Positions 29,950 to 46,155 of a stretch of DNA of 62,176 nucleotides are shown one piece after another. The notes under the pieces were generated by a model. The model saw nothing but the letters and a program-made list of their open reading frames with translations. It did not search any database and was not told where the DNA came from. The position numbers and the translations under genes are program-made. The stretch's first letter is position 1. Every line of letters starts with the position of its first letter. The stretch lies in the NCBI GenBank assembly GCA_014382905.1, contig JACNIU010000151.1, positions 1-62,176 on the forward strand, read 5' to 3'. This DNA comes from Desulfobacterales bacterium (GTDB taxonomy: Bacteria > Desulfobacterota > DSM-4660 > Desulfatiglandales > Desulfatiglandaceae).

Positions 29950-30933
29950 ATGAAAAAAGGTAAAATCGTGAGTGGGATGAGGCCCACTGGAAAAATGCAT
30001 CTCGGACATCTGCACGGCGCCCTTCTGAACTGGAAAAACCTTCAGGAAGAATACCAGTGTTTCTATTTCATAGCAGACTGGCATGCCCTGACCAGCGAAT
30101 ACGCCCATCCCGATATCATTCGTGAAAGCATGTATGATATTATCATCGACTGGATTTCAATAGGGCTCGATCCGGAGGTTTCCACCTTTTTTATTCAATC
30201 CGAAATCAAGGAACACGCAGAGCTTTATCTCCTGTTTTCCATGATCACCCCCCTCTCCTGGTTAGAGAGGAACCCCACTTACAAGGAACAACTGCGTGAA
30301 CTCTCCCAGAAAGACATCTATACTTATGGGTTCTTAGGGTATCCTGTCCTCCAGGCGGCCGATATTCTGATGTATAAAGCCAACGGTGTCCCTGTGGGTG
30401 AGGACCAGGCCCCTCATGTTGAGCTGACCCGAGAAATAGCCCGACGTTTCAACCACCTGTACGGCGAGGTATTTCCTGTCCCGGACGTCCTCCTTACCCC
30501 CACGTCAAAGCTTCTCGGTATTGACAGGCGTAAGATGAGCAAGAGCTATGGCAATGCAATATTCCTGACCGACACAGATAAGGAGATCGATGCCAAAGTG
30601 GGTGAGATGATCACCGACCCGCAACGGGCCAGGAAAACCGACCCGGGCGATCCTGATATCTGCAATCTCTTCTCCTATCATGAGATCTACACGGATGATG
30701 AAACAATCGAAAACATCCGCAGCGGATGCCGATCGGCTCAAATCGGTTGCGTGGAGTGCAAAAGGATGATGGCATCGACTCTCAAAACAGGACTTGAGCC
30801 GATAAGGGCCAAAAGAAAGGACTTAGAGGCGGATATCGATAGGGTGAAAGAGATTATGGAAGAGGGAAACAGGAAATCCCGAACCATCGCCCGAAAAACC
30901 ATGGAAGAGGTCAGGGACGCGGTGAAGATATAG
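29950..30933 (+). CDS. trpS: Tryptophan--tRNA ligase
   Basis: GKMHLGHLHGAL (HIGH) and KMSKS motifs. The 327-aa size and overall sequence are typical of TrpRS. Confidence 0.92.
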   Translation: MKKGKIVSGMRPTGKMHLGHLHGALLNWKNLQEEYQCFYFIADWHALTSEYAHPDIIRESMYDIIIDWISIGLDPEVSTFFIQSEIKEHAELYLLFSMITPLSWLERNPTYKEQLRELSQKDIYTYGFLGYPVLQAADILMYKANGVPVGEDQAPHVELTREIARRFNHLYGEVFPVPDVLLTPTSKLLGIDRRKMSKSYGNAIFLTDTDKEIDAKVGEMITDPQRARKTDPGDPDICNLFSYHEIYTDDETIENIRSGCRSAQIGCVECKRMMASTLKTGLEPIRAKRKDLEADIDRVKEIMEEGNRKSRTIARKTMEEVRDAVKI

Positions 30934-31049
30934 GCTGGGTGCTGGATACTGGATGCTGGATACTGGGTGCTGGATATTGGGGGATTGTTGATTGTCGATT
31001 GAGAATTGAAGAGCAGTAAACTTTAGGCACTTCAAACTTTAGGCACTTG
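30934..31049 (+). repeat. trpS-scpA spacer composed entirely of tandem repeats: 7 x (G/A)CTGG(G/A)T, 4 x (G/A)ATTG(T/A)N, 2 x AAACTTTAGGCACTT
   Basis: Read directly. It is C-poor and GGA-rich on the coding strand. Confidence 0.8.
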
Positions 31050-31051
31050 TA

Positions 31052-31786
31052 ATGGAATACGAAGTCAAATTGGAAATATTTGAAGGACCTCTGGACCTCC
31101 TGCTGCACCTCATTTACAAGAATGAGGTGGACATCTTCGATATTCCGATCACAACCATCACCGATCAGTACCTGGCCTATCTGGATATGATGAAGGCCCT
31201 CAATATCAGTGTTGCAGGAGATTTCCTGGTCATGGCATCCACACTGATCCATATAAAATCAAAAATGCTGCTTCCAGGCCTGAACGAAGGAGATGATGAG
31301 GAAGATCCCCGCGATGAAATCACGAGGCCGCTTCTGGAATATATGCGCCTGAAAGAAATGGCAGAGGAACTGTCGGAAAGGGAGATCTTGGGGCAGGATG
31401 TCTTTACCAGACAGGAATCCTCGTGGCATCAGGACGAGATAGATGCTGAAGGGCCCCGGTTGGATGTCAACCTGTTTCAGTTGATAGATGCGTTCAGGCG
31501 GATCATGGAACAAAACCAACCCGGGGCAGACCTGACGTTTAAATACCAAAAATGGTCGGTAAAGGAAAAATCGCAGGTCATCATTGCTTTTCTGAAACAA
31601 AAGGGAGAGATCCTTTTCGATGAAATTTTCGGTGAAGACCGAACGGTTTCTGAATTTATTGTCACCTTTTTAGCGCTTCTGGAGCTGGTTCACATCGGTC
31701 TTGTCAGGATATTTCAGCCTTCGTACAATAGTGCAATCCATGTCGTGGCCCACTTCGATGAAAATGAAACCACGGGAGACCTTTGA
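31052..31786 (+). CDS. scpA: Segregation and condensation protein A
   Basis: FEGPLDLLLHLIYKNEVDIFDIPITTITDQYL is the canonical ScpA N-terminus. Confidence 0.9.
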   Translation: MEYEVKLEIFEGPLDLLLHLIYKNEVDIFDIPITTITDQYLAYLDMMKALNISVAGDFLVMASTLIHIKSKMLLPGLNEGDDEEDPRDEITRPLLEYMRLKEMAEELSEREILGQDVFTRQESSWHQDEIDAEGPRLDVNLFQLIDAFRRIMEQNQPGADLTFKYQKWSVKEKSQVIIAFLKQKGEILFDEIFGEDRTVSEFIVTFLALLELVHIGLVRIFQPSYNSAIHVVAHFDENETTGDL

Positions 31787-31882
31787 AAAATGCTCAATTT
31801 TGGTCAAGGTCAAGAAAGGCGAGGATTTTAACCACCCCAGAGGAATAGGCATTCCACGGGGCAGGCAGGAATACATTAGAGT

Positions 31883-31990
31883 ATTTCGAGGATTAAAATT
31901 TGAGCCTGGCCCCAGTACCATCTTCCGGAGCTACGGGGCAGGCGCGGAGATTGGGCAAAAGGGGGCGTTTTGCAGAGGTCTCCACGGATC
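31883..31990. repeat. Intergenic repeat element, copy B (scpA-scpB spacer)
   Basis: The 36-nt core 31910..31945 is identical to copy A. Shared flanks are TTCGAGGATTA upstream and AAAAG-GGG-TTTTGC downstream. Confidence 0.8.
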
Positions 31991-32002
31991 ACAGGGAAAT
32001 AG

Positions 32003-32656
32003 ATGGAGAAGCAGCTTAAACTGATTATTGAGGCCCTCTTGTTTGCCTCGAGCAAACCTTTGAGCACGCTGGAAATTCAGAAGTGCCTTCCGGACAGCAC
32101 ACTCCCCGATATCCGGGCTGCCCTGACGGAATTGCAGACAGAATATGAGGCCATGCAAAGGAGCTTTCGCCTCAAAGAGGTGGCGCAGGGATATCAGATA
32201 AGGACAAGATCGGGCTATGCGCCCTATGTCCTCACAATGTTGAGGAGGTCGCCCGCCCGCTTATCCCGTGCCGCATTAGAGACGTTAGCCATCATCGCCT
32301 ACAAACAACCGATTATCCGTCAGGAGATTGAGAGTTTCAGGGGAGTGGACGTAGGAGGAATCCTGAGAACGCTACTCGAAAAGGATCTGATTCGAATCAT
32401 GGGACGAAAGGCCCTCCCCGGAAGGCCTCTTATCTATGGAACCACCAAGACGTTTCTTGAGGTATTTGATCTCAAGGATCTGGAATCGCTGCCAAAGCTG
32501 AAAGAGATAAAGGATTTTGGATCTGGCGATGAAGAAACAGCGGAGATCCCGGAGGAGGATAAAGAAGTTGAAGCGGCCGGAGAAAAAGAAGCCCCGCCAA
32601 TACCCGAGGAAGCGGAAACCCCTCCCACAGGAGAACGGGAAACCGGAAAGGCTTAA
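32003..32656 (+). CDS. scpB: Segregation and condensation protein B
   Basis: IEALLFASSKPLS..., ETLAIIAYKQPI and RGVDVGGILRTLLEKDLI are ScpB winged-helix motifs. It has an acidic C-terminal tail. Confidence 0.9.
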   Translation: MEKQLKLIIEALLFASSKPLSTLEIQKCLPDSTLPDIRAALTELQTEYEAMQRSFRLKEVAQGYQIRTRSGYAPYVLTMLRRSPARLSRAALETLAIIAYKQPIIRQEIESFRGVDVGGILRTLLEKDLIRIMGRKALPGRPLIYGTTKTFLEVFDLKDLESLPKLKEIKDFGSGDEETAEIPEEDKEVEAAGEKEAPPIPEEAETPPTGERETGKA

Positions 32657-33365
32657 CCGGATATTGTCTTCTGCTGGCGTGACATCCCGGCGGAATGCGG
32701 ACCAATTGATCGCGTCGGGCAGCGTCACAGTCAATGGCAAGCTGGTAAAGGAGTTCGGCACTGCTGCAACATGGGGCGTGGACGATATCCGAGTGGATGG
32801 ACAGCAAATCCCGTCCCCATCTGAAAGGCTCTACCTGATCCTCAACAAACCTTTCGGTTACATCTGCTCCCTCAGGGACCCACAGGGGAGGCCCCTGATA
32901 ACGGATCTCTTAAAAAATCTTGGCCGCAGGGTCTATCCTGTCGGCCGCCTTGACTTTGACACCATGGGCCTGCTGCTCCTCACAAATGACGGAGAATGGG
33001 CCCATCGTCTCACCCATCCACGGTATCAGGTTCCCCGAACCTACAAAGTCACCGTTGCAGGCAGAATAACCGATCCGGCAATTGCCGATTTGAGGAAGGG
33101 TGTCTTGCTGAGTGACGGCCCGAGCGGCCCGGCAAAAACCGCGCTGGTGGCGCGCAATGAAAACAAAAGTATCATCAGGATTACCATTACCCAGGGGAGA
33201 TCGCGCCAGGTGAGGCGTATGATTGAGGCGGCAGGGTTCAGGGCGGTTCACCTGATACGAATCGCATTCGGTAATATCGAGTTAGGAAAACTGAAAGTCG
33301 GAGCATACAGGCACCTCGACACAGAAGAGGTAATATCCACAAAAAAACTGGTGGGAATGATCTGA
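32529..33365 (+). CDS. rluB: RsuA/RluB-family 23S rRNA pseudouridine synthase
   Basis: S4 domain ERLNRILSSAGVTSRRNADQLI and catalytic GRLDFDTMGLLLLTNDG. The start is uncertain (TTG 32517, ATG 32529 or TTG 32568). Every option overlaps the scpB 3' end out of frame. Confidence 0.85.
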   Translation: MKKQRRSRRRIKKLKRPEKKKPRQYPRKRKPLPQENGKPERLNRILSSAGVTSRRNADQLIASGSVTVNGKLVKEFGTAATWGVDDIRVDGQQIPSPSERLYLILNKPFGYICSLRDPQGRPLITDLLKNLGRRVYPVGRLDFDTMGLLLLTNDGEWAHRLTHPRYQVPRTYKVTVAGRITDPAIADLRKGVLLSDGPSGPAKTALVARNENKSIIRITITQGRSRQVRRMIEAAGFRAVHLIRIAFGNIELGKLKVGAYRHLDTEEVISTKKLVGMI

Positions 33366-33437
33366 TTTTTTTATTTACAGACCCATATCAATATTGTATG
33401 TTGATTTTTAATCCGACTGAGAGCAGCAAGATAAACC

Positions 33438-33512
33438 GGGCGGTTAACTCAGCGGGAGAGTGCCATCCTCACACGGTGGAAGCCGGGGGTTCAAATCCCC
33501 CACCGCCCACCA
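33438..33512 (+). tRNA. tRNA-Val (anticodon CAC), CCA encoded
   Basis: Manual cloverleaf: acceptor GGGCGGT/ACCGCCC, D-stem ACTC/GAGT, anticodon stem CCATC/GGTGG with loop CTCACAC, T-arm GGGGG-TTCAAAT-CCCCC, discriminator A, then CCA. Confidence 0.88.
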
Positions 33513-33536
33513 TCATTTATTAGTTATATCAGGCTG

Positions 33537-33818
33537 TTATCCCTTCTTACGTGACGCTCTTTTTGGTGTCAGATGGGTGTCAGCATAGATATCTCTCACA
33601 TCCTCCAATTCCATCTGAAAATACCTTTCAAATGCCTTATTGGTTGAATGCATTGTAGCCCTCTTAATTTGTTCCGGGGTCCGGTAAATCCTCAATGCAG
33701 TTGCCGAGCTGTGCTTGGTCCCCCCGTAAAGATCCACTCCCTCAATGTTGAGATTGGAACAAGCTCTTTTCCAATACTCATATAGAAGGTGCTCGCCAAA
33801 AGGCTTCGGGAAACGCAT
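33537..33818 (-). pseudogene. C-terminal fragment (93 aa) of a tyrosine recombinase/phage-type integrase
   Basis: GGTKHSSATAL (HxxR-like box II region) and MHSTNKAFERYF (catalytic Tyr region). The N-terminal three quarters are absent. It lies 25 nt from the tRNA-Val 3' end. Confidence 0.7.
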
Positions 33819-33878
33819 GATCTGCTGAACATCGCCTCCTTTTACGGGCGGTGATCGGACAAATGGCCGATGACCACA

Positions 33879-36800
33879 TTACATCACCGCAGCATAGATC
33901 CCTTTCCCGGCCCCATAATACGATTCGTAGATATGTTGAAAGATGGCTTCTGTTTTCTGCTCAAAGAGTTTTTGGGTGTAAACTTCCGGCAACCCCCGGT
34001 CCAGCATTCTCTCAATGGTTACTCGAACATCAGCCCTTGACTGCTGCCTCTTTCGCCAGTCAAGCACCAGCTTCTCGCCTTTGAGTTTATTGAGCAGCTC
34101 CCGGGCTGTCTTCTTGACCTGCCCTCGCTCTTTAGGGGCGAGTTCTGGTTCCGGCTTCGTCAGGAGGTCAAAGAAGGCCAGTTCCTCCTCGGAGAGCTGC
34201 TCTGAAATGGTCCGCTTTTCCTCATCGTTCAGGTCCTGCGCAAAGTCCATCAGGCGGCGGAAGAACTCTTCAATATTGACACTTCCGGCATTGTACGCAT
34301 CAATCATCTGCTGAAACCGCTCCAGATAATTCATGCGGGAGCGGTTCATACGGACCATATGACGCAGTTTTCTCGCCACGGCACCTTTGATCTTTTCAGC
34401 CTCTGTACGCTTCCGTCCCTGCTCAAACCGCTGCCTCAAGGCTTCAAAATCGATTCGGCTTAGGTCTACCAGATGGTCTGCTCCATAGGGACCGGGCGGG
34501 TCCTCTATCACATAGCCTTCTGTTGAAATAGACCTGTCCAGCAAATCTTCAACGCTGTTCATGACACCCGTGATGTCTACTGGGGGCACAAGGGAGCGGA
34601 TTTTACCGGCCAGTGCCTTGAATAATCCCCGTGTTCCTGCATAGACATTGGCTGCGGGGTCCGGCAGTACCGCCTTATAGAGACGTTCCACCTGGTCGGC
34701 CAGGTTAAGAAATCCCTTCTTTATATCGTCTGTCTTCACCAGGGCCTCCACCGCATCGTCCAGCAGGCGAATTCGCTCCATAGCATCGGCCTTCTCGGCA
34801 GCCGCCACATCGATCCCGTTGTTCTTGCAGTATTCCGTGCATTCTTGAAGGGTCTTCTTCAGATCCTCCACCAGCGTGGCCTTTTCCCGGATCGGCTTTT
34901 CCCCTTCTGAAGCCACTCCCCCAGTTCCCGACCCATAAATAGCCAGTGCCTTTTCAAGGCTCCGAAAGACCCCCACATAATCCACGATCAGGCCATTCAC
35001 CTTTTCCGGAAACACCCGGTTCGCCCGGGCAATGGTCTGCATGAGCGTGTGGTTGCGCATGGGTTTGTCAAGATAGATGGTGGAGCAGGAAGGGACATCA
35101 AAACCGGTCATCCACATGGCGCACACAAAGACCAGCCGGAACGGATCATCCGGGTCTTTGAACTTGGTGTCCAGGTCCTCTTCCACCATGCGTTTTCGAT
35201 GAGGTCGGATATCAAGCCCTTTTTCCTTCATGTCGCGGATTTCATTCTGGGCCTGGGAAACCACCACTGCCATATCCGTCTCACCCATGAAAGCGAGCTT
35301 TTCCTTGAGTTCCTCCTGTCGTTCGTCATAGGACGTGGCCACATCGTCCATAAGCGTTGACAGGGCCTCTTTCCAATACTTCCTGACCTTTTCATACATC
35401 CTCACGGCCGTTGCCTTGTCAACGCAGACCACCATGGCTTTCCCCCAAAAGCCTCGGTTGGTGAAGTGCTTGACAATGTCCTCGGCCACCGCCTCTAACC
35501 GGTCGTCCCGGGTGATCAGGTGATACTCACGGGCGAATTCCCTTTCAAGCAGTCTCTCCTGTTCCTCGTCCAGTTCGGCATCTTCTAACAGCCGCTCCAT
35601 GTCTTCGTTGAGATTCTCATTGGAAAGCTGGAGTTCCGGTATGCGGTTTTCATAGTAGAGAGGGACCGTGGCCCCGTCATCTGCAGACTGTTTAAAGTCA
35701 TAGATACTTACATACTCCCCGAACACCTCCCGAGTCTTCTCCTCTTCTGCAATCAGGGGCGTGCCGGTAAAGGCCAGGAACGAGGCATTGGGAAGGGCCG
35801 TCCGCATATTCAAGGCCAGACGGTCGTACTGGCTCCGGTGGGCCTCATCGGTGATGACGATGATGTCATCCCGCTCAGATAACACGGGGTGTGCTTCATC
35901 TGTTTCTGTACGGAATTTATGGATCAGGGTGAACACATAGCGATGGTCTTCGGTCAGGAGCCGTCGCAGGTGGCGGCTGGATTCGGCCTGGGGTTTGGAT
36001 TCCGTGACGACCCCGCTTGAGGCAAAGTTCTTGTAGATCTGGCCATCCAGTTCTTTCCGGTCAGTGACAATCACAAAGGTCCAGTTCCCGAGCATCTTCC
36101 GTAGGACTTTCTGCGAAAAGAAGATCATGGACACGCTCTTCCCGCTTCCCTGGGTGTGCCAGAAGACCCCCAGACGGCCTTTTCGCGTTTTGATCTCCGT
36201 CATGGCCTCAAGGGCATTGTTCACGCCTAAATACTGGTGGTTCTTGGCGACAATCTTAATTAGGCCGCCCGGTGCATCCATAAAGAGGCTGAAGTTTTCT
36301 AACAGGTCCAGCAGCCTCACGGGGTCGCAGGTGCCCCGTATGATTGTCTCCAGGCTCACCGACTCGGCTTCTGTTTCGCTCTTCACCCGTTTCCACTCCC
36401 CAAAATGCTCCCAACCGGCGCTTACGCTCCCAACCTTGCTCTGGCTGCCGTTGGATAGAATAATGAGGCCATTGAACCAGAAAAGATGAGGGATCGTGTC
36501 CCTGTAATCGCTCACGTTTCCGGTATAGGCAGTCTCCAGCCGCTGGTGGACGGCTTTGAACTCCATGAGCACAAGAGGAAGGCCATTGACAAAACCCACC
36601 AGGTCCGGCCGGCGGGTGTACATATCGCCGGTGATCCATAGCTGAGAACAGAGCAGAAAGTCGTTTTCTTCCGGATGCTCCCAATCGATAACCCGGACCA
36701 CTTCGATGCGGTCATCCTCGCCGTCCGGGTCCGGGATTTCAACCCGGATGCCGTTTTTGATGAGGTCGTACACTTCCTTGTTAGCCGCTGCGAGGCTCAT

Positions 36801-37049
36801 ACGGGAGCGGTCCCGGAGGATTTCTTCTATGGCCAGGTCGACGGCCTGCGCGGGGAGTGCGGGATTGAGCTTCTCTAATGCGGGTTTAAGCCGGGATACT
36901 AACACCACTTCAGATTTGGTCTCGCGCCCCAGGGGACTGCCGCCCGTTTGCTCAAATTCATGAAAGGCGTCAACATGCTCCCAGCCCAGGTCTTTGAGCA
37001 TCTCGATGGCAGGTTTTTCAACCAGCGCGTCTTCGGAAAAGTCCGACAC
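33879..37049 (-). CDS. hsdR: Type I restriction enzyme R subunit
   Basis: GTG start. N-terminus ALVEKPAIEMLKDLGW, helicase motifs HTQGSGKS and VITDEAHRSQ, and a long C-terminal helical domain. 1056 aa. Confidence 0.92.
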   Translation of the reverse strand: MSDFSEDALVEKPAIEMLKDLGWEHVDAFHEFEQTGGSPLGRETKSEVVLVSRLKPALEKLNPALPAQAVDLAIEEILRDRSRMSLAAANKEVYDLIKNGIRVEIPDPDGEDDRIEVVRVIDWEHPEENDFLLCSQLWITGDMYTRRPDLVGFVNGLPLVLMEFKAVHQRLETAYTGNVSDYRDTIPHLFWFNGLIILSNGSQSKVGSVSAGWEHFGEWKRVKSETEAESVSLETIIRGTCDPVRLLDLLENFSLFMDAPGGLIKIVAKNHQYLGVNNALEAMTEIKTRKGRLGVFWHTQGSGKSVSMIFFSQKVLRKMLGNWTFVIVTDRKELDGQIYKNFASSGVVTESKPQAESSRHLRRLLTEDHRYVFTLIHKFRTETDEAHPVLSERDDIIVITDEAHRSQYDRLALNMRTALPNASFLAFTGTPLIAEEEKTREVFGEYVSIYDFKQSADDGATVPLYYENRIPELQLSNENLNEDMERLLEDAELDEEQERLLEREFAREYHLITRDDRLEAVAEDIVKHFTNRGFWGKAMVVCVDKATAVRMYEKVRKYWKEALSTLMDDVATSYDERQEELKEKLAFMGETDMAVVVSQAQNEIRDMKEKGLDIRPHRKRMVEEDLDTKFKDPDDPFRLVFVCAMWMTGFDVPSCSTIYLDKPMRNHTLMQTIARANRVFPEKVNGLIVDYVGVFRSLEKALAIYGSGTGGVASEGEKPIREKATLVEDLKKTLQECTEYCKNNGIDVAAAEKADAMERIRLLDDAVEALVKTDDIKKGFLNLADQVERLYKAVLPDPAANVYAGTRGLFKALAGKIRSLVPPVDITGVMNSVEDLLDRSISTEGYVIEDPPGPYGADHLVDLSRIDFEALRQRFEQGRKRTEAEKIKGAVARKLRHMVRMNRSRMNYLERFQQMIDAYNAGSVNIEEFFRRLMDFAQDLNDEEKRTISEQLSEEELAFFDLLTKPEPELAPKERGQVKKTARELLNKLKGEKLVLDWRKRQQSRADVRVTIERMLDRGLPEVYTQKLFEQKTEAIFQHIYESYYGAGKGIYAAVM

Positions 37050-37152
37050 TTATGACCCCCGTCAAAATTCTGAATTGTCAAAAAAAGACTTGACTTTTTT
37101 CCATTCTTGCCTATTATGGAAATAGCTCATCTACCATGTGTAGAAGGAGTTG

Positions 37153-37173
37153 GGCCGACGTTCTGCGTCGGCC
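37153..37173. other. Hairpin GGCCGACG-TTCTG-CGTCGGCC between the small-partner gene and the hsdR start
   Basis: Read directly. The T-run lies on the plus-strand side and an A-run on the other side. It is therefore not a canonical terminator for the minus-strand genes it separates. Confidence 0.4.
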
Positions 37174-37308
37174 TTTCCATTTTTATTTTATTTTCTTCTT
37201 GTATTTCTTATAAAGCTTCTTCCGCTTATGGGGATAATCCACATAAAAAGATGTGACTAATCGCCTTCCCCCATCGCGGTATCTTTTCATTATTACAACA
37301 AAGTCAAG

Positions 37309-37662
37309 TTATTTGAGCCATAGATAGGTCTTTACCGAACCATCCCCTTCCTTATAATCCCAGTTCAATAACTCAGGTTTGTCTCGATTCTCAATGACAG
37401 CCTTTATCCATGGCAGCCTTTCACAGCGTCTCATGTCAGGCAACCTTTCCCCCGTTTTTTTGTCTTCTCGGTGGGTAAGATGCCAAAAGATGCTTTCCTT
37501 ATCTCCCTCCATTTCTGGGAAAAACCAGACCGGCTTACCGCTGTATAGGGGCTGATTAAACTTAAAATCTCGCTCAAAAATTGAATAAAGGATGTCAAAT
37601 GTATCTTGCCCCCAGGGATCGACTCTAACCATCGGCGGCAGCCATTCAGGTAATTGGGTCAT
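37309..37662 (-). CDS. Hypothetical 117-aa protein translationally coupled (ATGA) to the DUF3800-like gene; an in-frame TAA is followed by 41 more sense codons
   Basis: The ORF track gives the ORF. The ATG at 37662 overlaps the DUF3800 stop. I recognise no motif. Confidence 0.55.
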   Translation of the reverse strand: MTQLPEWLPPMVRVDPWGQDTFDILYSIFERDFKFNQPLYSGKPVWFFPEMEGDKESIFWHLTHREDKKTGERLPDMRRCERLPWIKAVIENRDKPELLNWDYKEGDGSVKTYLWLK

Positions 37663-38372
37663 TGTTGTGTCTCCATGGCCTGCCAGCTAAAAATATTGAC
37701 TTTCTCCTCTCTCAGTAGGGTAGTCTTGGTCAGAGAATATCCGGATTCTTGCCTCATGAGTGCCACTAAGTCACCTTTGGCTTTACTCCCTCCATGTATC
37801 CTGTTAGCGTGAGAAACAGATCCAATGAGCAGGTCTGCTAATTGGAGTAGTTCCACCTGCTTTGATTCCAACAATTGAATACGTTCTATGATTTCTCTTG
37901 AGAAATCATACATATTATTACACAAAACGTCGTGCAGCTTAGCAACTTTTGCCCCACCGTGCGTATCCTTAATGTCGAGATAAACTCGATAACGAGATCT
38001 CGGTGTCAAAATCACCTTAAGCATGTCAAAATACATCTTGTAGTACCAAACATCATGGTCTTGGTTAGGGAAATCCGCATGGCGAAGTTTTGACTTGTCT
38101 GGGACGATGAGTGCCCTGAAATGGAGATCTTCTTCAGCGAAAAAATATGATATAAGATCTTCATAAAAAGCGATCTTACCCGGAGATACCTTGGTCCATT
38201 TGATCTCAAAACCCGGCTTCAGTCCATGCCTCAGCTTGGTTTCACGGATGTGCCTTGAGATCTCACGGGTTTTTTCCAAAGGGCACCAAACGGCTCCCAA
38301 AACCATGGCCTTTTGGTGGTCATTTTCCATGTGGCAGGATTCGTCGCAATAAACATTATACGTCGCAGTCAT
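37659..38372 (-). CDS. DUF3800-like protein
   Basis: ATG 38372 follows AAGGGGAG (the track start 38387 is TTG). N-terminal YNVYCDES and C-terminal LQLADLLIGSV match my recollection of the DUF3800 signature. Confidence 0.7.
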   Translation of the reverse strand: MTATYNVYCDESCHMENDHQKAMVLGAVWCPLEKTREISRHIRETKLRHGLKPGFEIKWTKVSPGKIAFYEDLISYFFAEEDLHFRALIVPDKSKLRHADFPNQDHDVWYYKMYFDMLKVILTPRSRYRVYLDIKDTHGGAKVAKLHDVLCNNMYDFSREIIERIQLLESKQVELLQLADLLIGSVSHANRIHGGSKAKGDLVALMRQESGYSLTKTTLLREEKVNIFSWQAMETQQ

Positions 38373-38480
38373 CTCGCTCCCCTTCAAACCGAGTAATCAT
38401 TCCCTCAATAACCCCGAATTGCCAACGATCAGATCATTCTCCAGATATTTTCCCTGTGGCTTTCAGGGACCCTTCGTCTA

Positions 38481-38663
38481 TCAATGGCGATACCGCTCTG
38501 TTCTGTAATCCGCTGAAACGCCAAGTGCCAAACCACACTTCACCCTTTGCCTGTATGGATAAAAAGCCTCAATGTGCCTCCAGCCCAGGTCGTTGAGCGT
38601 TTGGATAGCTGGCTTTTCCACCAGTGCGGCTTCAGTATAGCCACTTGCTGCTGACAGATTCAT
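38481..38663 (-). pseudogene. Remnant of an hsdR 5' end (about the first 33 codons), overlapping the hsdS stop
   Basis: SGYTEAALVEKPAIQTLNDLGWRHIEAF aligns with the intact HsdR N-terminus SDFSEDALVEKPAIEMLKDLGWEHVDAF. The similarity then stops. Nucleotide identity is roughly three quarters by eye. Confidence 0.7.
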
Positions 38664-39910
38664 GCGGCCTCCTCGGGGATATAAATGTCCAGGTCGGATA
38701 CATCCAGTTCGCCGGAGATGAGTTTGGGGAGGAGGAGGTTTCGGGTTTGGCGGAGGTTGTAATTTTGTTCGACCAACAACTCTACACGCCGCCTTATCGG
38801 GCGTGCGATAGCTTCAAAATCATGCATAAGAGTGCCGCACGGAATAGGCACTGATAACAGATAAATACCGCGTACGTTCAAACTATCCATTATCGCTCCG
38901 GCATCCTTCTTTCTTCTTACCTCATCTTCCATATGAGGCGATAGTAGATACTCAATGAGGTAGGTAGGTGTGAGCTTCCCTGCTATTGGTCGTACACCAG
39001 TCATATTTCTGCCTAAGGCCGCTTTCACGCCAGTAGGCATCTGCGCTACGGCAGCGATTCTCCCAACATTTGTAATTACGCAGTCCCCCTCTGAAACTTC
39101 TATACGACTTGTCCATTTCACATAATCATTCTCGGAAATCATGTATTTCCTTGAAAAGTCCAGTTTCCCCCCATCCACTACATTAAACAGCTGAATCAGG
39201 ATGCCCACACCCTCTTCACTTGCTTCCGGCTTCTTAGAGTGAAGACAATCAATGACCTCAACAACGTCTTTCATTAGGCTCACCTCCCACCCCTCCGGAA
39301 TCTTCCCCAGCGGAGAATCCACCATCCGCACCTTCTCATGTCCGGGAAAGCGGAACTTCACAAACCACTCCCGATAAAGGGCCTGGGCCATCTCCTCTAA
39401 GATCTTGATCCGCCGCAGGTTGTTCTCGATCAGGTCGTCATAGGCGGAGAGGATGGAGGCAATTTTGCGTTGGGTAGGGAGAGGGGGAAGACGAAGTTCG
39501 ATGCGCTTTAGGTTTGCTTGTGATAGCTTGGGTTGTGCTGCGCCTGTAATATATCCCGATATATTTGCCTGAGCAAACCATGCAAAAAGAAAATGATCAT
39601 CTGCAACGCCATTTTTGGCTCTGACTATATGCGCGTGATTGTTAACCCAGAATTTTCTTTGGGCAAAGAATGCAACTGGTAACTTTCGGCTGTTCAAATT
39701 CTCGCCATCTTCAGCGATAAGGAGATGCCGACCGTCAAAAATGAAATCGTCTATGTAATCAATAATTCCTGAAGCACCATAGTACGGATAAGGTCCTTGA
39801 CGCTGCTTACGCTCGTTTCCGCTGAGAGGTATTCTCTTATAATCGAAGATATCGACGACACCTCCGATAGTGGTATCGATCCATTTTGTTGTAGAATCAG
39901 AGCCCATCAT
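38660..39910 (-). CDS. hsdS: Type I restriction-modification S (specificity) subunit
   Basis: Two target-recognition domains separated by the conserved [24 protein letters not shown]...[15 protein letters not shown]-terminal [13 protein letters not shown]. Confidence 0.9.
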
Positions 39911-41466
39911 ACCCCGCCCAGCAACCTGACCACATTCTCCCCAATCCGCTCCTCCAACTCCATCGCCTCCACGTTCAGCTTCTCCAGCTCTTCATTCAAC
40001 TCCTCAAGCCGCTCTTTAAAATCGAAGTCCTCCTCCTCTCGATCGGCTACGCCCACATAACGCCCTGGATTCAGACTCCAGCCCTGGGCTTTGATCTCCT
40101 TGAGGGTGGCCACCTTGCAGAGGCCAGGAATGTCCTGGTAAATGCCGTCCGGGAACTTCTCGGCCATCATATCGGCGCTGCCGTGAAGATTCTCAGGCGC
40201 TTTTCCCCGGTAGAGGCGGGCGATGTTGCCAAGGAATTCCACCTGTTCGGGGGTGAATTCACGGTGGGCGCGGTCTACCTGTTGGTAAATATCGCGGGCA
40301 TCGATGAAGAGGACCTTGTCGGCCAGGTCCGTGTCCTTTTTGCCCCGGTCCAGAAACCAGAGGGTGCAGGGGAGGGTTACGGTGTAGAAGAAATTGGAGC
40401 CTACGGCCACCATCACATCCACGGCCTGGTCCTTGATCAGTTTTTTCCGGATCTCCAGTTCTGAGGCCCGGGCATCGGATGCGGAATTGGCCATGACAAA
40501 CCCAGCCCTTCCGGTTGTGTTCAGGGCGCTGTAGAAGATCTGGATCCAGAGATAATTGGCATTGTCCACCCTTGGTAGGCCAAAAGGGAATCGGGTGTCA
40601 TCCTTGAGCCGGTCTTTGTCCACCCGGTCCACATTGAAGGGCGGATTGGCCATGACAAAGTCGAACTTGCCGTTGTTGGCCGTGCTGGTATGGAGGTCCT
40701 CATAGTAGGTGTTCCCCTGTCGGATATCTCCTGCCAGGCCATGCACCGCCAGGTTCATCTTTGCCAAACGGACCGTTTCCGACACCCGCTCCTGGCCGTA
40801 GACACTGAGAACATTATCGGGACTGTTCTTATGCTCTTCCACAAAACGGGCGCTCTGGACAAACATACCCCCGGAGCCGCACGCCGGATCATAGATTCGG
40901 CCATGATACGGCTCAATAATCCGCACGATGAGCCGGACCACCGAAGTGGGAGTAAAGAATTCTCCGCCCTTCTGTCCTTCGCTTAAAGCAAACTTGCCCA
41001 GAAAATATTCATAGATCTTGCCGAAGGCATCCCCCTCGATATCCATGGGGATTGAGGCCATAACCTTCAGGAGCTCCACCAGGGTGGCCGTCTCCAGCCT
41101 GTTGAATGTCTTTGGTAGCACATCTTTGAGGTCCCGGTTCTCGGCCTCCACAGCCCGCATGGCATCATTGATCGCCTGCCCGATATTCGCCCCTTCAGGC
41201 AGTTTCAAAAGAGTAGAAAACCGCGCCTCCTCAGGTAGGTAAAGTACCCCTTTTGCCTGATAATCCGCAGGCCCGATCTTCCTCCGGCCCTCGCCCTTAC
41301 CCTCGATCTCCTTTTGGACCACACTGAACTTCTGATCCGCATACCGCAGAAAGATCAACCCCAACACCGGCACCGCATACTCCGACGACTTCAGCTTAGA
41401 ATTCGCCCTTAGCTCATCCGCCGCCGCCCACAACCGATTTTCAACCTGGTTACTGTTTCCTGGCAT
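39907..41466 (-). CDS. hsdM: Type I restriction-modification M subunit (N6-adenine DNA methyltransferase)
   Basis: N-terminal HsdM domain [12 protein letters not shown] motif [10 protein letters not shown], catalytic MANPPFN. Its stop overlaps the hsdS start. Confidence 0.92.
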
Positions 41467-41669
41467 ATCGTCTAATCTCTTTGTACGTTATTGTTGATTT
41501 TAATTAAGGTATCAAGGACGCGATGTCCTCAATTGCTAATCCAATACTCATCGGCTCATTATTCATCCCCATAGTTTTTCAACGCCCATAACGCTGCGCG
41601 TTACCGGCGCGCGCCGATCTTCCGCGCGTCCGAGTACACGCGCTTGTTAGGCCTCCGTCATCAGATGTC

Positions 41670-42608
41670 TCATTCATCGGCGAGAAGGTCAACGAGGTCT
41701 TTGACCTTTCCGAAGATCTCATCAAACGTCAACACCGTTACGAGACCAAGGCTGGACCGGAACAGCTCGAATGATCCCCTCTGACAAGCGTCAAGTTGGG
41801 GACTCTCAAAACTCCCTGAGATGATCAAGCAGCGGGGATTGAAGGCACAGAACTGTGCCGCGTCTCCACGGGTTAACGCGTGGAAATTATGCAACAGTTC
41901 GTTACGATAATTGAGAACCTGAACGATTGATCCCGAGAGTTCCTCCGACATCGAGTACGCGTTCGCCCTGTACTTCGATCCCACGAGTTTCGCGACGGGT
42001 GTCTTGATCTCGACCAGCGTCGCGTTCCTGTTCGACTGCGTAACAAACAAAAAGTCGACAATGTTACCACCAGTATTCTCGAAGCTCTTCCCGCCAACAT
42101 AGCACTTCTGCTGGAGCAGCAAGATGTGATCTGGAACAGCTTGCGCAATAAGTCGAGGATTGTTGACAAACAAGTCCTGCCAGAACTCCTCGTCGGCGTT
42201 CGTCTTGTTTCTCTCCCACACCACGAAGGCCTCCGCTAGTGGTCGTACTTTGTTCCGGTCGGGCTGCGGTCTCTCGATCGCTCCCAGTTCAAGCGCGCGA
42301 ACAATACGTTCCTCATGGCGAGCTTTGGCCTGTTTGAGCCATTCAGCCGTGTAGGTCTCGGGATCGCGATCAATGATCACGTGATGCGTCGGGCACAGGA
42401 GGATCAGATTTGCCTCGTCCCACAGCTTTTCTGTTTCGGCGGCGTCATATCTCGGGCCACCAGGGTGCATAGCGTGAATGTGGCATATCTCGCCAACCGT
42501 GAGCCCGGACAGCTCCACGGGATATGCGCAACCAGGAAACGCGCATCGTCCCCCAGATTTTGCGAAGAGGAGCTTCTTTGTCTTTGCGGGAATCATTCTG
42601 CCTCTCAT
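41670..42608 (-). CDS. HNH endonuclease domain fused to a DUF4263 (Shedu SduA-like PD-(D/E)xK) nuclease domain
   Basis: HNH: CAFPGC...ICHIHA...NLILLCPTHH. DUF4263-like: NIVDFLFVTQSNRNATLVEIKTP. The start is either ATG 42608 or ATG 42596. Confidence 0.7.
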   Translation of the reverse strand: MRGRMIPAKTKKLLFAKSGGRCAFPGCAYPVELSGLTVGEICHIHAMHPGGPRYDAAETEKLWDEANLILLCPTHHVIIDRDPETYTAEWLKQAKARHEERIVRALELGAIERPQPDRNKVRPLAEAFVVWERNKTNADEEFWQDLFVNNPRLIAQAVPDHILLLQQKCYVGGKSFENTGGNIVDFLFVTQSNRNATLVEIKTPVAKLVGSKYRANAYSMSEELSGSIVQVLNYRNELLHNFHALTRGDAAQFCAFNPRCLIISGSFESPQLDACQRGSFELFRSSLGLVTVLTFDEIFGKVKDLVDLLADE

Positions 42609-42690
42609 TCTCCCTGCCTAACCAATCATTATACAGTTTCCGGATAATTCCATGGAAAATCTCTCATCTCACAAAAAACGGGCCAGGTCT

Positions 42691-42744
42691 TCCAGTTTTC
42701 TAAACGGATAACATGACAAAAGGGGTGACATCCAGAAAACTGGA
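42691..42744. repeat. 11-bp perfect inverted repeat TCCAGTTTTCT ... AGAAAACTGGA (32-nt spacer)
   Basis: Read directly, in an ORF-free AT-rich region. Confidence 0.6.
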
Positions 42745-42799
42745 TAAGTTGCTATGATTCTTATTTCTTAAATTTCCAAATTCGTTGCGACGATTTTCG

Positions 42800-42832
42800 C
42801 TCCTGACAGGCCGGGCAGTATCCTGTCAGGAG
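42800..42832. repeat. 11-bp perfect inverted repeat CTCCTGACAGG-N11-CCTGTCAGGAG
   Basis: Read directly. Confidence 0.6.
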
Positions 42833-43282
42833 ATGGGTAAGCAGCTTTTTAGGTGGTACTCCATGGGGGACCTCTGACAAATGGGCCAGGGTTGTGCTTT
42901 GTAGGGCCAACTACGTATTGGCATGATAGTGAAAATGGCGATGAAGTCAAGAAAAATTTCGTTTTTAGTCAATTAGATTAGGGGAAATACCTTTAAAAAA
43001 GTTTAAACAAAAAATAAGCGAATTGGATTAAAATTTCACCCACAAGATAGTCCGAAAGAATTGGATCAAGAAATAAAAAATAGTAATTCAGTACTGCTGC
43101 TTTTACCACGGTCCCCCAGTTTTTTAAGCCAACCTGAATTTACCACTTGCGACAGAAAACTTTATTTGATATGGAGATTGAAAAAAGAAGGGGTCTGATT
43201 GGGAAAGCAGAGGGTTTCCTTTTGCTGGGCTAAGGCCCTACCCTTTAAGATAAACAGAGTAAATGAAAAGGAGCGCAGGAAT

Positions 43283-44158
43283 ATGAAGATCGGATGGATT
43301 GGCACTGGCGTAATGGGGGCCTCTATGGCCGGTCATCTCCAGAAGGCCGGTCATGGCCTCTCGGTTTTTAGCCGTACCAGGAAGAAGGCAGCGGGTCTGC
43401 TTGACAAGGGGGCTCGCTGGTACGATTCGCCAGCCGAGGTGGCAGCAAACTCAGAGATCGTCTTCACCATCGTTGGTCTTCCCGAAGACGTCAGGGAAGT
43501 CTACCTGGGAGACAATGGCATCCTGAGCCGAGAAACCGCCTGCAGCATTGTGGTGGATATGACAACGAGTCAACCCAGCCTGGCAAAAATCATCTTCGAG
43601 GAGTCAGCAAAAAGAGGTATCGAATCTCTCGACGCCCCTGTTTCGGGCGGCGATGTGGGCGCAAGAGATGCCAAGCTGGCGATTATGGTCGGCGGGAAAA
43701 AAGAGGTTTTTGAAAAGGTCCTTCCCCTCTTCCGGCTTATGGGGCCAACCATTTCTCACATGGGCGGACCCGGTGCCGGCCAACACACCAAAGTGGCCAA
43801 TCAGGTCCTTGTAGCCGGCAACATGATAGGCGCCTGTGAGTGCCTCGTCTATGCGACGAAACAGGGGCTTGACATGCAGCAGGTCATCGATATTGTCGGC
43901 AAGGGCGCAGCCAGTTCATGGGCCATAAACATATTAGGACCGCGTGTCGTTAAGGGGGACTTCGGTCCGGGTTTTTTCGTTGAGCACTTCATCAAAGACA
44001 TGAAGATCGCGTTAGAAGAATCTGCCGCCGTCGGTCTTTCCCTGCCGGGGCTCGCCCTGGTCCAGCAATTGTACATAGCGGTCAAAGCGCAGGGACACAG
44101 CCGATCAGGGACTCAGGCGCTGTTTCTTGCCCTGCAAGCGCTGAACGGCGAGGGATAG
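43283..44158 (+). CDS. NAD(P)-dependent beta-hydroxyacid dehydrogenase (3-hydroxyisobutyrate dehydrogenase family)
   Basis: ATG 43283 follows AAAGGAG. Rossmann motif IGWIGTGVMGASMAGHL; family-typical DAPVSGG. Confidence 0.85.
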   Translation: MKIGWIGTGVMGASMAGHLQKAGHGLSVFSRTRKKAAGLLDKGARWYDSPAEVAANSEIVFTIVGLPEDVREVYLGDNGILSRETACSIVVDMTTSQPSLAKIIFEESAKRGIESLDAPVSGGDVGARDAKLAIMVGGKKEVFEKVLPLFRLMGPTISHMGGPGAGQHTKVANQVLVAGNMIGACECLVYATKQGLDMQQVIDIVGKGAASSWAINILGPRVVKGDFGPGFFVEHFIKDMKIALEESAAVGLSLPGLALVQQLYIAVKAQGHSRSGTQALFLALQALNGEG

Positions 44159-44199
44159 AAGCGGCTTCACCAAACCTTAATTCACTGGAGGAAGTAAAA

Positions 44200-46155
44200 A
44201 TGGCGAAACTGTGCTGGAAGCCATCAGAAGAAAGAATCAAGAGTACAAACATGTATCGATTCATGACCTTCATTAATGAGAGGTACAATAAAGATTTTAC
44301 TGAATATGGCACGCTCTACCAGTGGTCCATCGACAATATCCCTGATTTCTGGGCCTCCATGTGGGATTTCGCCGAGATAAAGGCATCAAAACCATATACC
44401 CAGGTCGTTGATGACGTCACCAGGATGCCCGGCGCCAAGTGGTTTCAGGGGGCACGTCTCAATTTTGCAGAAAACCTTCTGCGATACCGGGACAACCATA
44501 CCGCCCTTATCTTTAAAGGGGAAGGCCAGGATTCTATCAGGATATCCTATTCAGAGTTGTATAACGAGGTGGGGCGTGTTGCCAAATCCCTGAAAGGGGC
44601 CGGGGTCCAGGCAGGAGACAGGGTAGTGGGCTTCATGCCCAACATGCCGGAAACCATCATGGCAATGCTGGCGGCCACGAGCCTGGGGGCAACCTGGTCT
44701 TCGTGCTCCCCCGATTTCGGAATAAAGGGCGTTCTGGACCGTTTCGGTCAGATTAAACCGAAGATACTCTTTACAGCCAACGGCTATTCCTTCAAGGGAA
44801 AGACCTTCGACTCCCTCACCCGCGTCTCCGAAATCCTAACGGACATCCCCTCCATTGAGAAGGTTGTTGTGGTTCCCTACACTGACCCGAATCCCGATAT
44901 CAGCCAGTTGCCCAAGGCAGTGGACTACCGGGAATTCAAATCCACGGAGACACCTTCGGAGATCGAGTTTGCGCAGTTCCCTGCTGACCACCCCCTCTAT
45001 ATCATGTTCACCTCAGGCACCACAGGCCTTCCCAAATGCATGGTCCAGAGCGCCGGCGGCATTTTGGTCCACCACATGAAAGAGCTGATGCTTCATACCG
45101 ATCTGAAGCGGGATGACACCATCTTTTACTTCACCACATGCGGATGGATGATGTGGAACTGGCTGACGAGTTCACTGAGCGTCGGCGCGACCCTCGTGCT
45201 CTTTGACGGCAACCCGTTCCACCCGGACCCGGGGGCCCTCTGGCAAATGGCCCAGGATGAAAAGATAACCCTCTTCGGGACCAGCGCCGGATATATTGCG
45301 GCCATCCAGAACGCAGGCGTGAAACCCGGCACAGATTACGACCTCACACCTCTGAAGGCCGTCCTTTCAACGGGTTCTCCCCTTTCCGTTGAAGGATTTG
45401 AATACATTTATCGTCAGGTGAAAGAGGACCTCCAGCTGGCATCCATCTCAGGAGGATCGGACATCAACGGATGTTTCGCCGGGGGCAATCCCATGGGCCC
45501 TGTCTATGCAGGTGAACTCCAGTGCAGAAATCTGGCCATGAAGGTGGAAGCATTTGATGAGAACGGGCAACCGGTCATCAACCAGCAGGGGGAACTGGTC
45601 TGTACCGCGCCCTCTCCATCCATGCCGATCTATTTCTGGGACGATCCTGATGGCGAAAAATATCACGCCGCCTATTTTGATGTATATCCCAATGTATGGA
45701 GACACGGGGATTTTATTGAGATCAACGACCGGGGGGGCGTGGTAATCTACGGCAGGTCAGATGCCACCCTGAATCCCGGTGGCGTGAGGATCGGAACCGC
45801 TGAAATCTACCGGCTTGTGGAAGGGATGGAGGAGATTGAGGACAGCCTCGTTGTGGGACAAACCTGGAAAAATGATGTGCGTGTAGTCCTGTTTGTCAAA
45901 ATGGCCCAGGGGTACGATCTGACGGACGACCTGAAGAACAGGATCAAAGCAACCTTGAGGCAAAACGCCTCACCCAGGCACGTGCCGGCCAAGATCATTG
46001 CCACGCCTGCCGTACCCTATACACTGAATATGAAGAAGGTCGAGTTGGCCGTCAAAAAGGTCATCGAGGGCCATGCCGTTCTCAACAAGGATGCCTTGGG
46101 CAATCCAGAAGCCCTCGACTTCTACGAGAACCTAAAAGAACTTCAGGAGGATTGA
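44200..46155 (+). CDS. Acetoacetyl-CoA synthetase (acetoacetate-CoA ligase)
   Basis: 651 aa. The N-terminus WKPSEERIKSTNMYRFMTFINERY... and the AMP-binding FTSGTTGLPKC are typical of the AACS subfamily. Confidence 0.85.
   Translation: MAKLCWKPSEERIKSTNMYRFMTFINERYNKDFTEYGTLYQWSIDNIPDFWASMWDFAEIKASKPYTQVVDDVTRMPGAKWFQGARLNFAENLLRYRDNHTALIFKGEGQDSIRISYSELYNEVGRVAKSLKGAGVQAGDRVVGFMPNMPETIMAMLAATSLGATWSSCSPDFGIKGVLDRFGQIKPKILFTANGYSFKGKTFDSLTRVSEILTDIPSIEKVVVVPYTDPNPDISQLPKAVDYREFKSTETPSEIEFAQFPADHPLYIMFTSGTTGLPKCMVQSAGGILVHHMKELMLHTDLKRDDTIFYFTTCGWMMWNWLTSSLSVGATLVLFDGNPFHPDPGALWQMAQDEKITLFGTSAGYIAAIQNAGVKPGTDYDLTPLKAVLSTGSPLSVEGFEYIYRQVKEDLQLASISGGSDINGCFAGGNPMGPVYAGELQCRNLAMKVEAFDENGQPVINQQGELVCTAPSPSMPIYFWDDPDGEKYHAAYFDVYPNVWRHGDFIEINDRGGVVIYGRSDATLNPGGVRIGTAEIYRLVEGMEEIEDSLVVGQTWKNDVRVVLFVKMAQGYDLTDDLKNRIKATLRQNASPRHVPAKIIATPAVPYTLNMKKVELAVKKVIEGHAVLNKDALGNPEALDFYENLKELQED

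Follow-up and report, generated by a model that had tools for sequence, protein, structure and literature searches.

A nonsense-shortened RlfA/RlfB-type (PDC-M04) gene pair nested in a Type I restriction-modification operon: a known but uncharacterised candidate defence family, probably inactivated in this member

Cassettes embedded in BREX, DISARM and Type I restriction-modification (R-M) loci were gathered by Payne et al. (2024; bioRxiv 10.1101/2024.01.29.577857) under the principle of 'guilt-by-embedding', yielding 145 phage defence candidate (PDC) systems that were predicted without testing. One entry in the supplementary table of that study, CAS_00034 (FAM_00014>>FAM_00043, 679 instances), carries the remark 'Assign as candidate PDC-M04'. 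In phage P1, the genes rlfA and rlfB lie just downstream of kilA-repL and are annotated as 'possibly associated with lytic replication'; both were non-essential in a CRISPR interference (CRISPRi) screen, and the rlfAB region is variable cargo of low guanine-plus-cytosine (GC) content in P1-like phage-plasmids, where it is often replaced. DUF3800, defined by an N-terminal DE and a C-terminal QxxD motif (PMC7736814), is an RNase H/H2-like domain known also from the effectors of retron type VII and from TPR-DUF3800 proteins found beside Cas12a2/a3 (PMC7736814, PMC10910872, PMC13594972). The three separate labels DUF3800, PADLOC PDC-M04 and P1 RlfAB/P7 RapAB are linked here through a pair of genes, referred to as A and B, found at positions 37183-38372 of a 62,176-nucleotide stretch of Desulfobacterales bacterium DNA (assembly GCA_014382905.1, contig JACNIU010000151.1), the whole of which is called the window. 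The pair belongs to a candidate defence family that is known but uncharacterised, and it has probably been inactivated in this genome.

Gene A (37659..38372, minus strand, as are all genes of the window described below unless stated otherwise) encodes a 237-residue DUF3800/PDC-M04A/RlfA-like protein. It is followed by the open frame of gene B (37309..37662; 117 codons and a stop), the ATG of B overlapping the TGA of A as ATGA at 37662-37659. As had been claimed in an earlier note made from the sequence alone, the two co-oriented genes lie inside a Type I R-M operon, between hsdS (38660..39910; specificity subunit of 416 residues; Pfam Methylase_S; PADLOC Specificity_I, E = 1.1e-76) on the upstream side and an intact hsdR (33879..37049; restriction subunit of 1056 residues; Pfam HSDR_N, SWI2_SNF2, T1R_D3-like and T1RH-like_C; PADLOC REase_I, E = 1.6e-192) on the downstream side. 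The start of A was placed at the ATG at 38372 and not at an upstream TTG, in agreement with the start of all homologues. The protein begins MTATYNVYCDES and contains LQLADLLIG, and its assignment to DUF3800 in the same note was borne out by a Pfam match (PF12686, E = 2.3e-13) of 51.5 bits against a cut-off of 21, in which residues 6-188 aligned with positions 1-148 of the 149 in the profile.

Both proteins were also recognised by PADLOC. A matched the PDC-M04A profile PDLC04353 (E = 1.6e-93) over positions 1-229 of 232, B matched the PDC-M04B profile PDLC04360 (E = 6.2e-34), and in the window A is directly followed by B on the same strand, as in PDC-M04. The pair is thus already catalogued in PADLOC-DB v2 as PDC-M04A/PDC-M04B and hence is not undescribed. 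Furthermore, searches of phage genomes by tblastn identified P1 RlfA as a homologue of A (49.8% identity over 97% of the query, E = 1e-70), and P1 RlfB and P7 RapB as homologues of B (29.6-31.2% identity, E = 1e-8 to 2e-9). In P1, rlfA ends and rlfB starts at position 52444, so that gene order and stop/start coupling are as in the window. The proposal that the pair forms an undescribed system must accordingly be abandoned in view of both PDC-M04 and the homology to P1 rlfA/rlfB and P7 rapA/rapB. Neither A nor B matched NCBIfam, and sequence-profile searches of the PDB with either protein returned no significant match.

Gene B in the window is a nonsense-truncated copy of a longer gene. The TAA that closes its frame (37309..37311) occupies codon 118 (Q118*, CAA>TAA) and stands in frame with an in-frame remnant of the B C-terminus, consisting of 41 further codons and a stop (LDFVVIMKRYRDGGRRLVTSFYVDYPHKRKKLYKKYKKKIK*; 37183..37308) and ending at 37183. 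The 117-residue product, which corresponds to the N-terminal 74% of a PDC-M04B/RlfB-like protein, aligned with only positions 3-114 of the 166 in the PDC-M04B profile (115.3 bits), while the read-through sequence aligned with positions 3-154 (167.8 bits, E = 4.2e-50) and the tail by itself matched positions 117-155 (E = 1.1e-10). Proteins of the B family are about 159 residues long and nearly all of the listed homologues have 149-178 residues; the few shorter ones listed are the truncated allele of the window and fragments of that allele, and the closest full-length relatives carry Q or K at position 118. The second gene had been described in the earlier note as encoding a 117-residue protein without a placeable motif. 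B has no Pfam or NCBIfam family. The protein is not a normal one: it belongs to a family of about 159 residues and is cut at codon 118, which had been missed.

The premature stop is a genuine feature of this lineage. The 117-residue product was present on at least 23 contigs (metagenome-assembled genomes from NCBI, ENA, Logan), and the 10 independently assembled contigs that were aligned were identical to the window across the truncated-B region; this exact agreement ruled out a sequencing error. Programmed read-through or recoding of the TAA was likewise ruled out, since a sister haplotype has CAA at this site and the B family shows no such feature. A model of a full-length B homologue (mean predicted local distance difference test, pLDDT, 94.9) displayed an α/β fold, in which Q118* would delete strands 121-127 and 133-140 and the helix 144-155, so that the C-terminal β-sheet would lose two of its four strands. 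The 42 C-terminal residues that are missing carry a net charge of +12, and the isoelectric point falls from 9.5 to 5.4 without them; a basic C-terminal segment is typical of the B family (68 diverse members), and the tail is conserved to the same degree as the remainder of B. Because Q118* removes these strands, the C-terminal helix and the basic tail, we infer loss of function of the truncated B, and the module is therefore most likely inactive in the window.

A second inactivating mutation was found in close relatives of the window. Two short contigs from other samples (L091/L092 in the numbering of the loci surveyed) differed from the window at two sites in 812 nucleotides: at 37311 they carry CAA (Q118) in place of TAA, and at 37525 they carry TGA in place of the TGG (W46) of the window. 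Each haplotype therefore has its own nonsense mutation in B, Q118* or W46*, in an otherwise identical background, and A was unchanged over the stretch that these contigs cover. Under random substitution, the chance of both differences being nonsense mutations in B is about 1e-3. The independent nonsense mutation in each haplotype thus points to selection, and suggests that an active B, or an active module, has been selected against in the lineage of the window. Recurrent natural knock-outs of this kind make B the gene in which toxicity or a cost should be looked for. Losses were also seen elsewhere: in three of 79 species-level loci obtained with A as the seed, B is a pseudogene next to an intact A (by frameshift in L024 and L033, by internal deletion in L043), and one locus (L151) holds an orphan B-like gene with no A in 2.4 kb of upstream sequence, the sole clear uncoupled case in 80 B-seeded loci. 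A general tendency for B to be lost more often than A across species was considered and set aside, the asymmetry between three disrupted B genes in 79 A-seeded loci and one orphan B in the B-seeded loci being unconvincing.

The earlier note had proposed structure prediction and Foldseek searches for both proteins, and these were informative for A. An AlphaFold2 model of A was obtained with a pLDDT of 82 and a predicted template-modelling score (pTM) of 0.85, and the first 15 ranks of a Foldseek search against the PDB were all RNase H2/HII structures (best E = 3.8e-5, template-modelling (TM) score ~0.5). Both motifs of DUF3800 are present, as D10-E11 near the N-terminus and Q177-x-x-D180 near the C-terminus, and D10, E11, D133, Q177 and D180 were invariant across 40 aligned close homologues. 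A is accordingly modelled as a protein with a predicted RNase HII-like fold and a complete DE…D…QxxD acidic site. The residues C9, C13, H14 and C30 around the catalytic D10-E11 (YCDESCH … WC) were also invariant in all aligned homologues of A; they may form a metal-binding or redox-sensitive site that is absent from housekeeping RNase HII. For B, by comparison, no significant match was found by Foldseek against the PDB, and a search of BFVD returned one uncharacterised viral homologue only. A likeness of B to RelE/HigB/BrnT and to OB-fold proteins (eIF-1a, DUF3217) was considered and dropped as too weak.

Co-occurrence of the two genes and enrichment near known defence genes had been named in the earlier note as points on which the proposal would depend, and both were observed. 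With A as the seed and one genome per species, the partner was adjacent in 79 of 80 loci, the exception being a contig end; with B as the seed, the same count was obtained from metagenome contigs (79/80), a set that represents the window's own B subtype; and among IMG/VR viral contigs, seeded with A and extending down to 32% identity in A, the partner was adjacent in 78 of 80. The junction between the genes is an ATGA or GTGA overlap in most loci. A and B therefore constitute an obligate, translationally coupled pair. No A-B fusion was seen among the listed homologues of either protein, and B is always a stand-alone protein of about 160 residues (1,268 clusters at 50% identity). Homologues of A at E≤0.001 numbered 6,676, not all of them necessarily of the paired type. 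The pair is spread over many bacterial phyla, some archaea, prophages and P1-like phage-plasmids, the last accounting for almost all plasmid matches. The immediate upstream neighbour was hsdS in 12 of 76 loci, and other DNA methyltransferases were found in this position too; the immediate downstream neighbour was hsdR in 8 of 74, in addition to ResIII, PLD and SNF2 proteins. Where enough flanking sequence was available, a co-oriented HsdR gene lay just downstream in 15 of 63 A-seeded and 22 of 47 B-seeded loci, and hsdS or hsdM upstream together with hsdR downstream in approximately 24-47%. On prophage contigs, the nearest neighbours were integrases (21/137) and CI-like repressors (11-15/137) and not replication genes. 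Defence loci and the immunity regions of prophages are thus recurrent sites of the pair, and the suggestion that it is an accessory cassette whose distribution fits a defence role is upheld by a partnership conserved over many phyla and by the frequency of hsd flanks.

The identity of A to that of the window was not correlated with the identity of B (r = -0.11; 144 pairs; L001-L080 and L099-L178). Where A was at least 60% identical, the median for B was 34%, and where A was 35-50% identical, the median for B was 56%. This suggests that A and B subtypes have been shuffled, with exchange of partners between modules. An alternative view of a conserved A accompanied by a fast-evolving sensor B was rejected, as the reciprocal B-seeded scan identified it as an artefact of ascertainment, subtype shuffling being adopted instead. 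In about 10 prophage loci (L220, L224, L230, L231, L236-L241), the match between the B profile and the gene downstream of A was limited to roughly the first 70 profile positions, the C-terminal half of the protein having been replaced or become highly diverged; PADLOC also holds a short B profile, PDLC04361, of 125 positions.

Taken together, we consider it fairly probable that the RlfA/RlfB-type (PDC-M04) module is a self-contained accessory immunity cassette composed of a nuclease, A, and a partner, B, and that the copy in the window has been crippled. From its genomic company we infer a defence role, with a division into nuclease and adaptor, in which A would be the effector, a metal-dependent nuclease of RNase HII-like fold, and B a nucleic-acid-binding, regulatory or target-recognition subunit of that nuclease, its conserved basic C-terminus being the best candidate for contact with nucleic acid. 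Upon infection, the pair would attack the nucleic acid of the invader, or that of the host as a form of abortive infection. For an enzyme of RNase H fold, the most obvious substrates would be RNA:DNA hybrids or replication intermediates. As cargo, the cassette would move within Type I R-M operons, occupying the gap between hsdS and hsdR, and with prophages, at their integrase/repressor end.

Several points weigh against this account. More than half of the loci have no nearby R-M gene, such that the case for defence is one of enrichment and not of universality. In the searchable literature, no experimentally defined function was found, in keeping with the earlier note, and likewise no experimental phage protection by any family member; no main text there names PDC-M04. 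B possesses no recognisable nucleic-acid-binding domain, but weak hints only: eIF-1a in 8 of 68 members (best E = 0.01), DUF3217/2hql (E ~0.02-0.05) and HigB/BrnT by Foldseek (E≥0.1). If the whole system was selected against, the fact that both losses fell in B and not in A could be chance, with a probability of (0.4)^2 or ~0.16. Finally, both nonsense alleles would keep the most conserved core of B, residues 50-117, if translation reinitiates; given this possibility, loss of function of the B alleles is considered likely.

A more far-reaching version of the same reading is put forward only tentatively. The module may be a mechanistically new anti-phage system, in which a nuclease of RNase HII fold is steered by B, a partner whose fold is not among the known structures, onto RNA:DNA hybrids or replication intermediates of the invader, and which within hsd operons would add a second tier of defence tied to Type I restriction; the nonsense alleles of B would then be escape mutations revealing a cost of autoimmunity. 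If this were true, P1 rlfAB would gain a function, namely the exclusion of other phages by the P1 prophage.

The position of the pair within the window raises the question of whether it acts as a guard of the restriction system, in the manner of PrrC, being kept inactive by HsdMSR until a phage anti-restriction protein disables restriction, whereupon it would be set free as a nuclease. The place of prrC, between the hsdS-side and hsdR-side genes, is matched; over 20 loci share the complete order hsdM-hsdS-A-B-hsdR and the same Type I family (HsdM 63-91% identical); and A often overlaps the stop of hsdS, as in L001. However, hsd neighbours occur in only ~24-47% of the loci with enough flank, and the pair is also found alone, in P1-like phage-plasmids and at the int/cI ends of prophages, whereas PrrC itself is embedded almost exclusively in Type I R-M loci (Payne et al.; bioRxiv 10.1101/2024.01.29.577857). 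A also lacks ATPase and HEPN features, and a guard of this type is considered unlikely.

Small coupled genes on mobile elements and islands also bring to mind a toxin-antitoxin or addiction module serving to stabilise its island or mobile element, with A as a toxic nuclease and B as its antitoxin, or the reverse. The repeated knock-outs of B would fit a toxic or costly B, and the top Foldseek matches of B, although weak (E≥0.1) and not significant, were to the toxins HigB and BrnT. B as an essential antitoxin, however, is made less likely by the viability of haplotypes that combine an intact A with a truncated B (Q118* or W46*) and that were recovered in many samples. As neither protein has an antitoxin-type DNA-binding domain and the module exceeds the size usual for a classical type II pair, an addiction role appears improbable. 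Least probable of all is a replication-linked role on mobile elements, with an RNase H-like enzyme and its helper processing R-loops or primers at an origin such as oriL: the P1/P7 pair does follow kilA-repL directly, under a C1-controlled operator, with an annotation that names a possible association with lytic replication, B matches phrog_16230, named 'replication protein', and an RNase H fold would suit primer or R-loop processing, but the rlf name, and with it the 'replication-linked' annotation, appears to be positional only, rlfA and rlfB are both non-essential for P1, the rlf region is variable cargo in P1-like elements, and chromosomal pairs lie inside R-M operons while those of other prophages lie beside integrase or repressor genes and not replication genes. 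The self-contained immunity cassette is thus retained as the preferred reading.

How the pair came to lie in this operon was also considered. The earlier note had described the cassette as richer in AT than its surroundings and as bordered by the stump of an older hsdR on one side and by a hairpin on the other, and had taken it for mobile cargo. The composition was confirmed (GC 0.40-0.46 over A and B vs 0.52-0.58 in hsdR and hsdM), and both borders were found. The hairpin (37152..37174), GC-rich with a 10-bp stem, stands directly past the stop of full-length B and ahead of hsdR, and is terminator-like on the plus strand only, the side of the T-run. The stump is a 60-residue open reading frame (ORF; 38481..38663), derived from the N-terminus of a diverged hsdR, whose start overlaps the stop of hsdS; by BLASTP it is 58% identical to the N-terminus of the resident HsdR over 33 residues (E = 1e-12), and a direct repeat of 98 nucleotides (38543-38640 and, at the 5' end of hsdR, 36944-37041; 72% identical) reflects the same relationship. 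L102 is the closest relative in which B is intact; its HsdM, A, B and HsdR are 91%, 84%, 91% and 90% identical to those of the window, whereas its HsdS is just 46% identical and it has no stump. The stump is confined to the lineage of the window. Because L102 lacks the stump and differs chiefly in HsdS (46% vs 84-91% for the others), import of an hsdS allele accounts for the stump better than mobility of the cassette does: on the simplest reading, a foreign hsdS recombined in, carrying about 35 of the first codons of its own hsdR, so that the stump is a record of specificity-subunit exchange and not of the arrival of the A-B cassette. The idea of mobile cargo thus loses the stump as an argument, but horizontal transfer of the cassette as cargo remains compatible with its low GC and with the finding of the pair in phages and islands.

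In another hsd operon, that of L093/L094 (L100), in which B is 88% identical to that of the window, the segment between hsdM and hsdS (~1750-2060) is occupied by a Fic-like_C gene together with a small ORF, and that operon therefore holds two separate embedded cargos.

The remaining features of the window indicate that the pair belongs to a small defence island consisting of Shedu, the Type I R-M system and PDC-M04. The methyltransferase gene hsdM (39907..41466; 519 residues) was identified by Pfam N6_Mtase and HsdM_N and by PADLOC MTase_I (E = 2.3e-227). Directly upstream of it lies an HNH-SduA (Shedu) gene (42608..41670), which combines HNH with SduA_C/DUF4263 (PADLOC SduA PDLC00406, E = 1.3e-98; Pfam SduA_C, E = 4e-20). 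At the other end, beyond hsdR, a 93-residue integrase-like ORF (33537..33818) shows a likeness, confined to motifs, to the C-terminus of a tyrosine recombinase; it has no Pfam match and is followed by a tRNA-Val(cac) gene on the plus strand (33438-33512; Rfam). This arrangement suggests an island of about 9.7 kb (33.4 to 43.2 kb) that was integrated at tRNA-Val and whose integrase has since decayed. Weak AT-rich inverted repeats (71-79% complementary) at 33367-33414 and 43025-43189 lie near the island ends and may be due to chance. The tRNA was the sole Rfam match in 33000-43500, where no DUF3800-associated RNA motif was found.

These results concern a widespread pair without a demonstrated function, for which the link between the labels provides P1 in E. 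coli as a tractable model of a candidate defence system. The copy in the window, being probably dead, is poor material for cloning, and the intact relatives L102 or L100 are better suited. What remains of interest is the connection of P1 rlfAB to a candidate defence family, the fold of B without a known structural relative and the natural knock-outs of B; together, these three points make the function of the PDC-M04/RlfAB family directly testable.

Of the known systems, PDC-M04 itself is the closest, given the strong profile matches of both proteins, the same gene order and adjacency and the embedding in a Type I R-M locus. The window differs in that its B is shortened by a nonsense mutation and aligns with profile positions 3-114 of 166 only, short of a full-length match, and PDC-M04 is a prediction for which no published phenotype or mechanism was found. 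P1 RlfA/RlfB and P7 RapA/RapB are a homologous pair that agrees with the window in gene order and in the overlap of stop and start codons, and that resides in variable cargo DNA of low GC; the P1 copy, however, lies downstream of repL under a C1 operator and not in an R-M operon, and its RlfB has the full length of 154 residues, whereas the window has a shortened B, contains no repL or phage immunity genes and has hsdS and hsdR as the neighbours of the cassette. PrrC of the EcoprrI hsd locus offers a parallel as an accessory nuclease whose gene sits inside a Type I hsd operon, but it combines an ABC-ATPase with an anticodon nuclease where the present pair would combine an RNase H fold with a small partner. 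The proteins are unrelated, with no Pfam or PADLOC match of A or B to PrrC-type domains (ABC-ATPase, anticodon nuclease), and PrrC is almost always embedded in R-M loci, the present type of pair in a minority to half of its loci. RNase HII/RNase H2A provide the best structural matches for A (3puf_A and 1eke, TM ~0.5) and share a DEDD-like acidic arrangement; sequence identity is ~10%, there is no Pfam RNase_HII match, and A has the additional invariant C9, C13, H14 and C30, such that A resembles RNase HII in its predicted fold and is not a member of that family. Retron type VII and the TPR-DUF3800 proteins beside Cas12a2/Cas12a3 share with the window a DUF3800 domain, a predicted RNase H/H2-like fold and an association with immune loci. 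They differ in the reverse transcriptase, non-coding RNA, TPR domain and CRISPR locus that the window locus lacks, no retron reverse transcriptase being present among the ORFs in 30000-45000 or in the 25 commonest neighbouring Pfam families of 80 loci. The DUF3800 proteins of retron type VII, furthermore, are without the Q of QxxD, whereas A keeps Q177xxD180, and, unlike in either of those contexts, the DUF3800 clade of the window has a dedicated partner, B, that is specific to it.

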